NCBI GenBank assembly: GCA_910587255.1
Contig: CAJUKT010000073.1
Location: 5,700 to 69,699, forward strand
Origin: an uncultured Oscillospiraceae bacterium
GTDB taxonomy: Bacteria > Bacillota > Clostridia > Oscillospirales > Oscillospiraceae
DNA length: 64,000 bases
Direction: 5' to 3'
The position numbers and the translations under genes were made by a program. Position 1 is the first letter of the stretch, and each line of letters begins with the position of its first letter. Shown piece after piece: positions 24,062 to 55,355 of the stretch. The notes beneath the pieces were generated by a model. The model was given only the letters and a program-made list of their open reading frames with translations, had not been told where the DNA came from and searched no databases.

Positions 24062-24090
24062 TTGACAAAGCGTGTTTGCTGTGATATGAT
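24062..24090 (+). promoter_or_regulatory. Sigma-A promoter of the T-box leader
   Basis: TTGACA (24062-24067), a 17-nt spacer and TGaTATGAT, an extended -10 (24082-24090). Confidence 0.7.
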
Positions 24091-24094
24091 CCTA

Positions 24095-24362
24095 ATCAAC
24101 GTAAGGATGAGGACCAGTAGCCAACAGGTTTTCTGCCCAGAGAGCCCCCGTTTTGGTGGAAGGGGGACAGAAACGGTTGGCGAATACCCCTCGGAGCGGC
24201 CGCCTGAACGGGAGTTTCCCCAGTAGGGCCGGACGGGTGCGCCCGGTACAGCGCCGGGGTCCTGCTGGGGACTCCCTGAGGCCGTCTCTGCGAGGGGACG
24301 GCAAAACAGAGGTGGTACCGCGAGCTTTCGCCCTCTGTCCCAAAGGGACAGGGGGTGATTTT
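24095..24362 (+). promoter_or_regulatory. T-box leader (tRNA-Tyr specifier UAC) with terminator
   Basis: Stem I elements are GATGAG, AGTA, AGAGAG and the distal GGTGGAAG. The specifier context is GAA-TAC-C near 24183-24189. The T-box sequence is AGAGGTGGTACCGCGAG (24307-24323). The terminator is CCCTCTGTCCC-aaa-GGGACAGGGGG followed by TGATTTTGATT (24331-24365). Confidence 0.9.
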
Positions 24363-24831
24363 GATTAAGGGCGAAATACAATTGAAAAAGGTTCCGCTGG
24401 AAGAGGCGCAGCAGTTTTGGCAGATGCAGAGGCTGGCTTTTTCGGAGCTGCTGGAAAGGTATCAAGATACGCAGACCAACCCGGCCTGTGAAACGCTGGA
24501 ACGCGTGCGAAGCAAAATGGCGCAGCCGGGCTCCTTCTTTTACTGGATCAAATGGGGAGAAGAACCAGTTGGAGGTATTCGAATCGTTGCTCGAGAGAAT
24601 GAAAGCAAACGAATTTCTCCGCTGTTCGTTCTGCCGGAATACCGCAACCGGGGGATGGCTCAGCAGGCGATCAGGCTGGCAGAGGAGCTGTACGGGGGCG
24701 AAAACTGGGAGCTGGATACGATCCAGCAAGAAAAGGGGAACTGCCATCTGTATGAAAAGGCGGGCTACCGCCCAACTGGGGAGACGCGAGAGATCAATCA
24801 TAAAATGACATTGATATATTATAAAAAATAA
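24355..24831 (+). CDS. GNAT-family N-acetyltransferase
   Basis: 158-aa ORF with ...VGGIRIVARENESKRISPLFVLPEYRNRGMAQQAIRLAEE (GNAT motif A). The start is uncertain (GTG 24355 or TTG 24361). G+C is noticeably lower than in the flanks (28/60 in the first 60 nt). Confidence 0.75.
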   Translation: MILIKGEIQLKKVPLEEAQQFWQMQRLAFSELLERYQDTQTNPACETLERVRSKMAQPGSFFYWIKWGEEPVGGIRIVARENESKRISPLFVLPEYRNRGMAQQAIRLAEELYGGENWELDTIQQEKGNCHLYEKAGYRPTGETREINHKMTLIYYKK

Positions 24832-24844
24832 AGGAGAACTGATC

Positions 24845-26077
24845 ATGACGCTTTACGACGAACTTGTGGCCCGGGGCCTGGTGGCCCAGGTCACCAGCGA
24901 GGACGAGGTGAAAAACCTCATCAACAACGGCAAGGCCACCTTTTATATCGGCTACGACTGCACGGCGGACAGCCTGACGGCGGGGCATTTTGTGACCCTG
25001 ACGCTGATGAAGCGGCTCCAGCAGGCGGGAAATAAGCCCATCGCCCTCATCGGCGGGGGCACCACCACCATCGGCGACCCCTCCGGCCGCACCGACATGC
25101 GCAAGATGCTCTCCCGGGAGGACATCGACCACAACGCCCAGTGCTTCAAGCGCCAGATGGAGCGGTTTATCGACTTTGGCGACGGCCCCGGACAGGCCAT
25201 GATGCTCAATAACGCCGACTGGCTGCTCAGCCTCAACTATGTGGACCTGCTGCGGGAGGTGGGGGCCTGCTTCTCGGTGAACAACATGCTCCGGGCGGAC
25301 TGCTACAAGCAGCGCATGGAAAAGGGGCTGTCCTTCCTGGAGTTCAACTATATGATCATGCAGTCCTACGACTTTTACCACATGTTCCAGACGGTGGGTT
25401 GCAACCTCCAGTGCGGCGGCAACGACCAGTGGAGCAATATGCTGGGAGGGACCGAGCTCATCCGGCGCAAGCTGGGGAAGGATTCCCACTGTATGACCAT
25501 CAACCTGCTCACCGATTCCCAGGGGAACAAGATGGGCAAGACGGCAGGCAACGCGGTGTGGCTGGACCCCAACAGGACCAGCCCCTATGACTTCTACCAG
25601 TACTGGCGCAACGTGGGGGACGCGGACGTGATGAAGTGCGTGCGCTGGCTCACCTTCCTCCCCCTGGAGCAGATCGATGAGATGGATCAGTGGAAGGACG
25701 CCCAGCTCAACCAGGCTAAGGAGATCCTCGCCTGGGAGCTGACCAGCATGGTTCACGGCAGGGAGGAGGCGGATAAGGCCCAGGCCGCCGCCCGGGCGCT
25801 CTTCTCCAGCGGCGGGGACGCGGCCGATATGCCGTCCACCGCGCTGTCCGGGGATGATTTCACCGGCGGCTCCATCGGTGCGCTGACACTGCTGGTAAAG
25901 TGTGGTCTGGCGGGCTCCAACGGTGAGGCCCGGCGACTGGTGCAGCAGGGGGGCGTGATGGTGGCGGATGAGAAGGTGTCCGACCCCGCCGCCCAGTTCC
26001 CGAAGGAGCGCTTTGCCGGGGAGGGCGTCATCATCAAAAAGGGCAAAAAGGTATTTCACCGGGCGGTGCTGGCGTAA
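24845..26077 (+). CDS. tyrS: Tyrosine--tRNA ligase
   Basis: MTLYDELVARGLVAQVT..., a HIGH-type motif (LTAGHF), a KMSKS-type motif (KMGKT) and a C-terminal S4 domain. Confidence 0.95.
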   Translation: MTLYDELVARGLVAQVTSEDEVKNLINNGKATFYIGYDCTADSLTAGHFVTLTLMKRLQQAGNKPIALIGGGTTTIGDPSGRTDMRKMLSREDIDHNAQCFKRQMERFIDFGDGPGQAMMLNNADWLLSLNYVDLLREVGACFSVNNMLRADCYKQRMEKGLSFLEFNYMIMQSYDFYHMFQTVGCNLQCGGNDQWSNMLGGTELIRRKLGKDSHCMTINLLTDSQGNKMGKTAGNAVWLDPNRTSPYDFYQYWRNVGDADVMKCVRWLTFLPLEQIDEMDQWKDAQLNQAKEILAWELTSMVHGREEADKAQAAARALFSSGGDAADMPSTALSGDDFTGGSIGALTLLVKCGLAGSNGEARRLVQQGGVMVADEKVSDPAAQFPKERFAGEGVIIKKGKKVFHRAVLA

Positions 26078-26165
26078 GAAGCTGTACCAATAGCCTCAGC
26101 ACCCAGCTTTGCGTCCAAAATTGCCGCCGGCCGCGTTGAAAAATCTTGAAATACACTTGGAATCC
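26078..26165 (+). repeat. MITE-like family A, truncated half copy
   Basis: GAAGCTGTACCAATAGCCTCAGCACCCAGCTTTGCGTCCAAAATTGCCGCCGGCCGCGTTGAAAAATCTTGAAATACAC matches the left half of 33428-33588. It starts immediately after the tyrS TAA. Confidence 0.75.
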
Positions 26166-26198
26166 TTATTCCGCAAAGGACCAGGGGAGGAATGGCAC

Positions 26199-27728
26199 AT
26201 GACGGCATATGAGAGATTTCAGGCGCTGGAGCTGGATCGATCCTGGCTGGGGCTGGAGCGGGGAGATACGCGCGGGGACTACTTCTGCACCCCGCTGGGG
26301 GCGCAGGTCATCGGCTGGGCGGGGGTGGACGGCATCCACTTTTGCTTTGTGGAGGGCTTTGGAGAGATGGTGTTTGCCGTCAGCCCCGCCAACCTGCCGG
26401 GGGACTATGTGCAGCCGCTGGCCGGGAGCTTTGCGGATTTTATCCGCCTGGTGCTGGCCTGCGGCGGCATAGACGCGGCGGAGCAGGCCCACGGCTGGAG
26501 CCGGGTGCAGTTTGACGAATACCTGGCGCAGTACCCGCCGGACGGGGAGCGCCGGGCGGCCCTGGACGCGCTGGGGGACGGGATGGGGCTGGCTCCTATG
26601 GACGACCCCTACGGGTATATCAAGGGAATACAGTCCTCCTTTGACTACGGCGCGTTACGCTTCGGGGAGGACTACTGGGACTTTGTGGGCAGACCGTCTC
26701 CGCCGCCTCAGGCCCCGGCATGGCGGGTGACGTACGGCGGAGGCGGGGGCCGGGAGAGGCCGGGGCAGGAGATCCCGGTGGACAAAACCTTTGAGTGGGG
26801 CGGCAGCGTCTGGCATGTCCCGGCGGTGTACCTCTGCGGAAAGGGACTGGTGGCGGATCTTTGCATGGAGATTGAGCCGGAGCGGATGCGGGAGTTCTGG
26901 GAGAAGTGGCGGCCATGGATGGAGGAGGGCCGGGCCCTCACCCCGGAGGAGAGTGACCGGCAGGAGGCGGACAACCCCATGGGCGTGAGCTTTGACATCG
27001 AGGCGTGTGTCAACGGCAGGGCGCTGCGGCAGGAAAGCGGCTCCGGCTTTGGCTGGACGCCGCCGGACTGCCGCCCGGACTGGGAAGGGCAGGGGGAACG
27101 GAACCAGCAGAACTATGAGGGGCTGTGGGTGCTGGAGCACTATGGTCTGAATCAGGAAAAGTGCTGGCTGTTCTGGCGGGCGTGCTTTCCCTGGGCGACA
27201 AAAACAAAGCCCAAGCTGAAAAGCCTGACGCTTACCCTATCCCAGTCCCCCGCCGCGCAGCCAGGGCCCCGGTTTGCTGTGTCCGGGGTGGGGGAGGAGT
27301 TCCCGTTTACCCATCCGATCACAGGGCGGGAGCACATTTTACACGTGGAGGAGTACGAGCAGCGGGTATTGGATACGAGCTTTGACGATGACGAGTGGGA
27401 ATATCCCACCCACTTCACCGCCATGACCTACGCCGTGTGGCCGGAGCTACCCCAGGGGGCGGTGGACATCCGGGATTGCGGGGAGGGCGACCGGCCCCGC
27501 AGAAAAACGCCCCCGAACCCTATGGGGCCGACGGCGTTCAACGCGGTGGCCTTGGGGGTGATCGGGGGCGCGGACGGCCCTGCGGCGGTGGTGCTGGCCA
27601 ATGGGGGGAGCGCCCGGCGGCAGGCTGCCTGCTCCGCCCTGCGCTTCCAGCCAGGAGGGCCGGCGGAGTGGCGGATGGTGTTTTATGAAAAGAGCGTGGA
27701 GGACACGCAGGTGTATATGATACCTTGA
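26199..27728 (+). CDS. Hypothetical protein, 509 aa, Trp-rich, no recognised family
   Basis: GGGGAGG lies 8 nt before ATG 26199. The frame has GC3-rich codon usage throughout. The N-terminal ~110 aa (DYFCTPLGAQVIGWAGVDGIHFCFVEGFGEMVFAV) vaguely resemble SMI1/KNR4 (SUKH) domains, a recollection only. Confidence 0.6.
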   Translation: MTAYERFQALELDRSWLGLERGDTRGDYFCTPLGAQVIGWAGVDGIHFCFVEGFGEMVFAVSPANLPGDYVQPLAGSFADFIRLVLACGGIDAAEQAHGWSRVQFDEYLAQYPPDGERRAALDALGDGMGLAPMDDPYGYIKGIQSSFDYGALRFGEDYWDFVGRPSPPPQAPAWRVTYGGGGGRERPGQEIPVDKTFEWGGSVWHVPAVYLCGKGLVADLCMEIEPERMREFWEKWRPWMEEGRALTPEESDRQEADNPMGVSFDIEACVNGRALRQESGSGFGWTPPDCRPDWEGQGERNQQNYEGLWVLEHYGLNQEKCWLFWRACFPWATKTKPKLKSLTLTLSQSPAAQPGPRFAVSGVGEEFPFTHPITGREHILHVEEYEQRVLDTSFDDDEWEYPTHFTAMTYAVWPELPQGAVDIRDCGEGDRPRRKTPPNPMGPTAFNAVALGVIGGADGPAAVVLANGGSARRQAACSALRFQPGGPAEWRMVFYEKSVEDTQVYMIP

Positions 27729-55179: not shown

Positions 55180-55355
55180 GAATGTCTTCAGGGCGGGGTG
55201 AAATTCCCCACTGGCGGTATAGTCCGCGACCCGCGAAAGCGGTTGACCCGGTGAAACTCCGGGACCAACGGTAAAAGTCCGGATGGAAGAAGACGCGTGA
55301 CCCCTCTTGAGGTAGTGTCGCGCCTGGAAGACAGTCTTTTCAGGCGTTTCATACT
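55180..55355 (+). promoter_or_regulatory. FMN riboswitch (RFN element) with expression platform
   Basis: CAGGGCGGGGTGAAATTCCCCACTGGCGGTATAGTCCGCGACCCGCGAAAGCGG...CCGGTGAAACTCCGGGACCAACGGTAAAAGTCCGGATGGAAGAAG matches the conserved RFN core. It is followed by the hairpin CGCCTG...CAGGCG and a T-rich tract. Confidence 0.9.

Follow-up and report, generated by a model that had tools for sequence, protein, structure and literature searches.

A GNAT acetyltransferase gene between a tyrosine T-box leader and tyrS belongs to a Clostridia family that recurs in tyrosine operons

A stretch of 64,000 nucleotides (nt) from an uncultured Oscillospiraceae bacterium (GCA_910587255.1, contig CAJUKT010000073.1, positions 5,700 to 69,699; the window in the following) carries a gene for a GNAT acetyltransferase, which is located between a tyrosine-specific T-box leader and tyrS, the gene encoding tyrosine--tRNA ligase (TyrRS). 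The encoded protein belongs to a conserved Clostridia family of about 155 amino acids, whose genes have entered tyrosine operons on several separate occasions, and the gene is probably not an arbitrary passenger. The reading favoured here, with a probability of roughly 55%, is that the GNAT gene and tyrS form a two-gene operon under the control of the Tyr T-box and that the GNAT is an N-acetyltransferase for a small tyrosine-related amine or amino acid. A previous sequence-only reading of the same DNA had called a tyrosine-linked function of the GNAT suggestive; the presence of the same family in four other gene orders of tyrosine operons now lends comparative support to this idea.

The best 80 of at least 580 genomic loci of the GNAT family were examined, and eight exact-protein look-ups added further cases. 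Seven of the 80 loci belong to the window's own clade, and ten more have tyrosine genes within 3 kb. In the first of the other gene orders, a T-box leader with a UAC specifier is followed by an aminotransferase gene, the GNAT gene, tyrS and yigZ; this arrangement is found in L076, L201 (P0115) and L210/L211 (P0067, on 24 contigs). The leader of L076 scores 82.6 bits with the Rfam model RF00230 and has GAA-G-UAC-A in the specifier loop, and the promoter, the UAC specifier, the T-box motif and the terminator are directly readable in L201 and L210. The second order also starts with a UAC T-box leader and an aminotransferase gene, which are followed by tyrS, yigZ and only then by the GNAT gene (L071 and L073, with leaders of 78.3 and 76.6 bits). 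The tyrS-yigZ-GNAT core of this order recurs in L064, and also in L058 and L198, where the gene upstream is cut; the sequence of these loci covers the core but not the upstream end. In the third order, which consists of aroE, aroK, a DAHP synthase gene, the GNAT gene, the prephenate dehydrogenase gene tyrA, aroB and aroA (L074), the GNAT gene is part of an aro operon; the trio DAHP synthase-GNAT-tyrA is likewise found in Pseudoruminococcus massiliensis (L063), and the neighbours were confirmed by NCBIfam in both cases. The fourth order comprises the genes for EPSP synthase and prephenate dehydrogenase (tyrA), the GNAT gene and a DAHP synthase gene (L204).

The TyrRS proteins of the first two groups are 47-52% identical to that of the window, while members of the window's bacterial family reach 65-84%; with identities of only 47-52%, these carriers therefore represent separate lineages. 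In the GNAT tree, one subtree of 26 rows contains every tyrS-linked copy as well as the two aro-operon copies that were included (L063 and L074), and the other 55 rows contain none. The probability that a gene lies by chance next to one of about ten tyrosine-pathway genes was roughly estimated at less than 1% per independent context. By this estimate, which is not a formal test, fewer than 0.5 such cases would be expected among about 50 contexts, whereas at least four distinct gene orders were seen.

The terminator-tyrS junction itself is a replaceable cargo slot across the bacterial family and accommodates at least eight unrelated gene families. In a same-genus survey, tyrS was located in 24 genomes and the upstream DNA was read. 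The close set comprises 13 species, whose TyrRS proteins are 92-96% identical to that of the window. Within this set, the slot is occupied by the GNAT gene in the window, G024, L037 and L038 (as well as in L039, where tyrS is cut by the contig end), by an unknown gene of 156 amino acids followed by the GNAT gene in G007 (L014 = L040), L041 and L042, and by a gene for a Nudix hydrolase of 154-157 amino acids, with a stop codon that overlaps the AUG of tyrS, in G022, G019, G015, G023 and G020; in G004, the slot is empty, and the T-box motif is separated from tyrS by 81 nt. A survey of T-box-tyrS loci for the presence of the GNAT gene had been suggested together with the sequence-only reading, and it reveals that the contents vary among close species. 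In more remote members of the genus, an EamA transporter gene, a gene for an MBL-fold (Lactamase_B_3) protein or nothing is found at this position. The stop codon of the Nudix gene overlaps the start codon of tyrS (ATGA) in L008, L011, L012 and L015, which suggests translational coupling of the two genes; the slot Nudix has a weak match to the PADLOC candidate PDC-S07 (E 3.9e-6). In a wider sample of the bacterial family, which included 40 further genera, the T-box core motif was present upstream of tyrS in 28. Twelve of these have a direct junction (71-154 nt), and in eight an EamA gene intervenes; genes for an MBL-fold protein, a C_GCAxxG_C_C protein, a RibD_C/DHFR-like protein and a membrane-anchored unknown protein occur once each, and two genera have related zinc-ribbon proteins. 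In a tree of tyrS DNA, the Nudix species L012 and the GNAT species L038 are sisters (support 100/100). This is the one firm sister pair, and gains and losses of slot genes are not countable since the tree is poorly resolved among the 13 closest species.

The additional gene found between the terminator and the GNAT gene in three of these loci encodes the acidic 156-amino-acid protein P0121 (L002 1971-2441, minus strand; = L014/L040; also L041 and L042). It overlaps the upstream GTG codon of the GNAT gene by 4 nt, is absent from most GNAT carriers and has no match in Pfam, NCBIfam or PADLOC. It is flanked by the imperfect direct repeat GGGGYGWTTTTGAT of 13-14 nt, which arises because the GNAT gene keeps the leader piece GGGGUGAUUUUGAUG and the terminator ends with GGGGGCGUUUUGAU.

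The GNAT gene was acquired recently and is not ancestral; it entered the junction between the terminator and the Shine-Dalgarno (SD) sequence of tyrS in a subclade of the genus. Its GC content is 0.505 and its GC content at third codon positions (GC3) is 0.597, compared with GC3 values of 0.883 in tyrS and 0.814 in the HAD gene upstream and a genomic GC content of 0.601, and its composition lies in the 2nd percentile of windows of 477 nt. The foreign composition had already been noticed in the sequence-only reading and is borne out, apart from a minor miscount: the first 60 nt contain 27 G+C, not 28. The insertion in the gap from the Tyr T-box to tyrS, which had been proposed as well, is now supported by both the foreign composition and the differences at the same site between sister species, as close species have a Nudix gene or nothing there. 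Among orthologues in the T-box slot, the median ratio of non-synonymous to synonymous divergence (dN/dS) is 0.18 for the GNAT gene and 0.10 for tyrS, and the GNAT gene thus appears to be a working gene under purifying selection. Between the window and L009, dS is 1.04 for the GNAT gene and 0.40 for tyrS, and between the window and L037, the values are 0.19 and 0.41; dS of the GNAT gene is uncoupled from that of the adjacent tyrS, and the cargo therefore has its own exchange history. No integrase was found among the flanking genes (recN, a HAD gene and one gene without assignment), and the junctions of the extra gene showed only the imperfect repeat of 13-14 nt, with no dedicated attC search having been made.

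All elements of the locus are located on the plus strand. The promoter is of the sigma-70 type (TTGACA-17-TATGAT, positions 24062-24090), with a TG upstream that gives an extended -10 region; it has 11 of 12 hexamer matches and is the sole promoter-like site on this strand between 23800 and 26400. It is followed by the tyrosine-specific T-box leader RNA (24095-24338), which was aligned to RF00230 over the full length of the model (1-219) with 108.9 bits, compared with a gathering score of 93, and an E value of 3.9e-23. According to this alignment, the specifier codon is UAC (24185-24187) and is preceded by the GAA of the specifier loop (24182-24184), and orthologous leaders of relatives share the GAA-UAC specifier context. 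The antiterminator helix (24306-24338) comprises 33 nt with a bulge of 7 nt and has a folding energy of -13.2 kcal/mol when folded alone. This bulge holds the T-box sequence GGTGGTACCGCG (= GGUGGUACCGCG; 24311-24322). Its UGGU and the A73-CCA end of tRNA-Tyr are complementary. The genome contains two genes for tRNA-Tyr(GUA), both with A73-CCA, which fit the UAC specifier and the bulge. The intrinsic terminator (24328-24368) consists of a hairpin at 24328-24358 with 14 pairs, 9 of which are G-C, and -29.8 kcal/mol, and of the U-rich tail TTTTGATTAA at 24359-24368 (given also as UUUUGAUUAA); folding of the region 24326-24400 yields a z score of -4.2. Nucleotides 24328-24338 belong to both the 3' strand of the antiterminator and the 5' strand of the terminator, and the two helices are thus mutually exclusive. 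The promoter, the specifier context and the T-box sequence are all present as described before, and so is the terminator; its boundaries differ slightly from the earlier 24331-24365. Judged by these elements, the leader appears to be an ordinary class I T-box with all parts for tRNA-dependent antitermination, and read-through is predicted.

The B. subtilis tyrS T-box leader (RF00230, class I transcriptional) shares the match over the full model, the UAC specifier, the UGGU bulge, the exclusive antiterminator and terminator and the regulated tyrS gene with the leader described here. However, in the window, a foreign gene is located between the terminator and tyrS, and the SD sequence and the first start codon of this gene are part of the 3' strand of the terminator. 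Other leaders and switches were also noticed. A second T-box operon with a GNAT gene is located on the minus strand of contig C102 of the same genome, at about 73.3-76.3 kb (L212); its leader (65.9 bits, E 5e-13) has a CUG (Leu) specifier, and it is followed by an open reading frame (ORF) of 566 amino acids, which reads like leuA, and by an unrelated GNAT gene of 165 amino acids. An FMN riboswitch (RF00050, 115.5 bits) is present on the plus strand of the window at 55180-55298.

The longest ORF of the GNAT gene extends from GTG 24355 to 24831 and also contains an in-frame TTG at 24361, which corresponds to a protein of 155-158 amino acids. It is of full length without frameshift or internal stop, and it is followed after 13 nt by tyrS (24845-26077), which was assigned by TIGR00234 with 378.8 bits at equivalog level and contains the tRNA-synt_1b domain and the SYY C-terminal domain. 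The gene pair is therefore confirmed as it had been described, with the GNAT supported by Pfam scores above the cut-offs: Acetyltransf_1 (PF00583, 44 bits, cut-off 20.7), Acetyltransf_10 (PF13673, 42.9 bits) and Acetyltransf_7 (PF13508, 38.3 bits). A promoter or terminator of its own, which would separate the GNAT gene from the leader or from tyrS, had been named as a possible objection; no terminator-like or promoter-like site was found on the plus strand from 24358 to 26323, and hence none between the GNAT gene and tyrS. The SD sequence of tyrS, AAGGAG (24831-24836), overlaps the stop codon TAA of the GNAT gene (24829-24831) and is retained in all cargo variants of the slot.

Translation initiation of the GNAT gene is less straightforward. 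The only purine-rich SD candidate is GGGGGUGA (24351-24358), which is located within the 3' strand of the terminator stem, and the GNAT gene would therefore have to be translated from an open stem. Every relative whose GNAT gene directly adjoins the T-box leader has the identical layout; where the slot contains the Nudix gene or the unknown gene, a separate SD sequence is present downstream of the terminator. In five relatives, the terminator is followed by GGGGGUGAUUUUG-AUG-AAG, and the GNAT is called from this AUG with a length of 155 amino acids. The corresponding codon of the window (24364-24366) is ATT, which leaves TTG 24361, GTG 24355 and the weak ATT itself as possible start codons. 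Every carrier has the in-frame UUG 24361 and GUG 24355, which is uninformative about their use since both belong to the U-tract and the stem. The sequence-only reading had correctly placed the GTG and TTG codons and the ribosome-binding site in the 3' half of the terminator; what it had overlooked is that this genome has lost the ATG that is annotated in the relatives, and that the contents of the leader-tyrS gap vary throughout the bacterial family.

Directly downstream of tyrS, an ORF of 509 amino acids is located at 26199-27728 of the window, for which no Pfam match was found. A repeat starts at the stop codon of tyrS (TAAGAAGCTGTACCAATAGCCTCAGCACCCAGCTTTGCG..., 26075-26165), and a near-identical copy of it is located right after the GNAT stop codon of the leuA-GNAT T-box operon on C102.

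Homologues of the GNAT number in the hundreds, have lengths of 152-160 amino acids and identities of 50-60%, and are found in Oscillospiraceae, Lachnospiraceae, Ruminococcus and Christensenellaceae. An alignment of 23 sequences contains 30 invariant columns, which include the acetyl-CoA motif R-N-R-G-M-A, YQDxxTNP and QEKGNCHLYEK; N127-C128-H129 is likewise invariant. The sequence RNRGMA agrees with the acetyl-CoA pyrophosphate motif R/Q-x-x-G-x-G/A, with G98 being invariant and A100 near-invariant, and the window GNAT keeps all invariant residues of the family. An AlphaFold 2 (AF2) model with a mean confidence (pLDDT) of 94.7 displays GNAT topology and has hundreds of structural matches among GNATs. 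In a profile search of PDB sequences, PaiA (1TIQ, E 3.7e-8) was followed by 8OSP (E 3.8e-7) and SpeG enzymes, and the top ranks of the Foldseek search were PaiA, 4E2A, 8OSP (rank 5), CBU0801 and SpeG, with MccE at rank 26 (TM score 0.74). PaiA and SpeG align to the family with TM scores of 0.77-0.80 and identities of 14-18%, and no match reaches equivalog level. The classification by profile and structure that had been proposed before thus assigns the protein to the GNAT superfamily by Pfam, AF2 and Foldseek, with acetyl transfer as the predicted activity, and its nearest relatives appear to be small-molecule amine acetyltransferases. RimI (TIGR01575) was ruled out with 16.6 bits against a cut-off of 86.4. 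A PADLOC search of the GNAT, the 156-amino-acid protein, the MBL-fold slot protein and EamA gave no match, and a role as a defence system was rejected, since the GNAT has no PADLOC match and the slot Nudix has a single weak candidate match. Some family members are fused to PqqD-like or STAS-like N-termini, which give no clear functional hint and may be run-ons of gene calling.

PaiA (1TIQ) and SpeG, spermidine/spermine N-acetyltransferases, are the best structural and profile matches of the window GNAT; unlike them, however, the window family has its own invariant YQDxxTNP and QEKGNCHLYEK and lacks a polyamine gene context. MccE and RimL are GNATs that shield a synthetase by N-acetylating its inhibitor, as they act on aminoacyl-adenylate mimics such as processed microcin C, but the similarity is an analogy of logic only: MccE had no match at E <=0.01 in the PDB profile search, and RimL is not named among those matches. 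Both belong to another GNAT subfamily, Acetyltransf_3. The closest precedent under the control of an RNA is LcGNAT of Lactobacillus curiae (8OSP), a canavanine-selective N-acetyltransferase of the polyamine-acetyltransferase subclass, whose gene is under a guanidine-IV riboswitch (PMC10416765, PMC9788692). Like the window GNAT, it is a small single-domain GNAT under an RNA switch, and it acts on an amino-acid antimetabolite; unlike it, it is associated with another RNA switch and another amino acid (an arginine analogue) and is only about 14% identical.

In the favoured reading, the UAC specifier would base-pair with uncharged tRNA-Tyr(GUA), whose free ACCA end would bind UGGU of the bulge. 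This pairing would hold the antiterminator at 24306-24338, thereby allowing RNA polymerase to pass the terminator at 24328-24358 and to enter both genes, so that the GNAT gene and tyrS would be co-transcribed when tRNA-Tyr is uncharged. As the 3' strand of the terminator stem contains the ribosome-binding site and the first start codon of the GNAT gene, translation of this gene may be gated twice by the tRNA-stabilised antiterminator, while tyrS would be translated from its own strong SD sequence. The acetyl-CoA-dependent GNAT would thus be induced exactly as charging of tRNA-Tyr falls. The substrate class is most plausibly a small amine or amino acid, and the best guess, which is made with modest confidence, is a tyrosine look-alike that competes at TyrRS, such as tyramine, D-Tyr, m-Tyr, L-DOPA or a tyrosyl-adenylate mimic. 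A look-alike is favoured because the consumption of tyrosine would be harmful when the operon is on and because the nearest RNA-controlled relative removes an amino-acid antimetabolite. A more specific version, which we regard as somewhat unlikely, takes the GNAT for a dedicated antidote to a look-alike that blocks TyrRS or is mischarged: inhibition of charging would induce both TyrRS and the enzyme that acetylates the inhibitor, and Nudix, MBL-fold hydrolase and EamA would be alternative antidotes. Tentative candidate substrates of such an antidote are tyramine, amines of the tyrosinol type, tyrosine analogues from plants or microbes, and mimics of tyrosyl-adenylate. If this were true, the gap between leader and tyrS would be a small exchangeable "synthetase protection" locus.

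Several observations weigh against the favoured reading. Outside the 17 tyrosine-linked loci, 63 of the best 80 loci have other contexts. In two samples with one genome per species, the GNAT family was found in 9 of 201 genomes of the window's bacterial family and in 19 of 399 genomes of an unbiased class-wide sample. No Tyr-linked copy was found among the other eight carriers of the first sample (tyrS is on another contig in five, and its place is not listed or it is absent in three), and none of the other 18 carriers of the second has a tyrosine gene within 4 kb (0/18). It follows that the link to tyrosine is restricted to a subfamily among the closest homologues. The slot cargo is chemically diverse, as would be expected for a permissive insertion site, and similarity of fold within GNATs does not identify a substrate. 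Furthermore, the window copy has ATT instead of the relatives' ATG, and its dN/dS against the two nearest relatives is 0.36-0.37. Finally, G000 and nearly all relatives possess dtd (PF02580) irrespective of the slot content; no complementary pattern of GNAT and dtd exists for this reason, and detoxification of D-Tyr as a replacement for Dtd was rejected.

Outside tyrosine contexts, the GNAT family is usually found in small islands of accessory enzymes, for example with other GNATs and a Nudix gene (L202), with a HIT hydrolase between two GNATs (L205), with MBL-fold and GNAT genes (L206 and Lachnospiraceae loci such as L067), or with a MATE exporter and a MIF-family tautomerase (L208). This pattern fits a detoxifying or house-cleaning small-molecule enzyme rather than a core biosynthetic one. 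In L208/L209 (P0074 context), the family member is located between the MATE exporter gene and the MIF-family gene, which is a weak aromatic link; MIF proteins include phenylpyruvate and 4-hydroxyphenylpyruvate tautomerases. An aromatic cluster of the window's own genome (C102:81938-85263, L213) consists of genes for DAHP synthase, an MBL-fold (Lactamase_B) protein, prephenate dehydrogenase and a Nudix hydrolase, with the MBL gene at the position of the GNAT gene in L074 and L063. The MBL-fold and Nudix proteins of L213 were rejected as orthologues of the slot proteins, with which they have the superfamily alone in common.

The GNAT gene could also be a neutral hitch-hiker, i.e., a small mobile accessory gene that was taken up by an insertion-tolerant junction and is expressed as a by-product without any tie to tyrosine. 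Its foreign composition, the sporadic occurrence of the family in both samples, its usual location in islands with other GNAT, Nudix, MBL, HIT and MATE genes, the imperfect repeat GGGGYGWTTTTGAT flanking the extra gene at G007-type loci and the slot itself, with its at least eight unrelated gene families and differing sister species, agree with this view. It does not account for the presence of the family in at least four other tyrosine-operon orders of lineages with about 50% identical tyrS, where fewer than 0.5 such adjacencies would be expected by the rough chance estimate, and it is at odds with the purifying selection on the GNAT gene and with a conserved start region that all carriers share and that is tightly joined to the terminator. 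As the slot plainly takes unrelated genes, a hitch-hiker remains a serious rival, which we consider possible, if on the unlikely side. Another proposal is that the window copy is losing its function and persists as an operon spacer only, as might be suspected from the change of ATG, which is found in five relatives, to ATT at 24364-24366 and from the dN/dS of 0.36-0.37 compared with the median of 0.18. The raised ratio, however, comes from small distances (dS about 0.2), the intact ORF keeps all invariant residues, and the same SD sequence precedes the in-frame TTG and GTG codons, which are located 3 and 9 nt upstream of the ATT; loss of function is thus very unlikely.

Two further explanations concern what the enzyme acts on. 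The GNAT could affect the supply of tyrosine by N-acetylating L-tyrosine or an intermediate, or lysine residues of TyrRS, TyrA or DAHP synthase; small single-domain GNATs can be protein acetyltransferases, and the gene is found between those for DAHP synthase and prephenate dehydrogenase and adjoins tyrS and the aminotransferase gene. Using up tyrosine while tRNA-Tyr is uncharged would, however, be counter-productive, small-molecule amine acetyltransferases are the structurally nearest proteins, and the GNAT has no regulatory or partner domain, which together make such a role doubtful. The sequence-only reading had drawn an analogy to TacT/AtaT-type toxins, which would here acetylate Tyr-tRNA-Tyr. 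TacT, AtaT and ItaT indeed share the GNAT fold, a size of about 160 amino acids and a conceptual link to tRNA with the window GNAT, whose link is the tRNA-sensing leader. The analogy did not hold: an adjacent, usually overlapping antitoxin gene of the RHH/DUF1778 type would be expected upstream, but no antitoxin gene is present; the T-box leader is directly upstream and the essential tyrS follows 13 nt downstream, and the extra 156-amino-acid gene of three relatives, which lacks Pfam, NCBIfam and PADLOC matches, is missing from most carriers. No TacT or AtaT chain was present among the 26 PDB profile matches or the top 50 Foldseek matches, where small-molecule amine acetyltransferases are nearest, the GNAT has no PADLOC match, and the family, which shows no specific similarity to these toxins, is embedded in essential and biosynthetic operons, including aro operons. 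A toxin is effectively excluded.

T-box leaders are textbook switches of synthetase, biosynthesis and transporter genes. In the gltX-cysE-cysS operon of B. subtilis, a Cys T-box precedes cysE, which encodes serine acetyltransferase, and cysS follows. As in the window, a T-box, an enzyme gene and an aminoacyl-tRNA synthetase gene are thus combined in one operon; however, CysE makes a precursor of the cognate amino acid and is conserved in its operon, whereas the GNAT was recently acquired, is interchangeable and has a putative role. In the searchable literature, no GNAT family with recurrent recruitment to Tyr T-box, tyrS and aro/tyrA operons was found, nor a single bacterial family in which the gap between leader and synthetase gene serves as an exchangeable cargo slot, nor a cargo gene whose SD sequence is the 3' strand of a terminator. 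Full-text literature searches yielded neither a T-box-controlled GNAT beside tyrS nor a bacterial tyramine N-acetyltransferase. The finding is a solid, testable comparative-genomics lead to a new tyrosine-related enzyme, with a concrete route to its substrate, and not a new mechanism.

For the evolution of riboswitch operons, the locus means that the gap between a T-box terminator and a synthetase gene behaves as an exchangeable slot and that the terminator stem can house the ribosome-binding site of a cargo gene. If the substrate were a tyrosine antimetabolite or an inhibitor of TyrRS, the operon would protect an essential synthetase through a circuit that induces itself, for which the riboswitch-controlled canavanine acetyltransferase provides a precedent. 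A conserved GNAT that repeatedly joins Tyr T-box and aro operons would give the tyrosine regulon of these abundant Clostridia of the gut a new enzyme activity.

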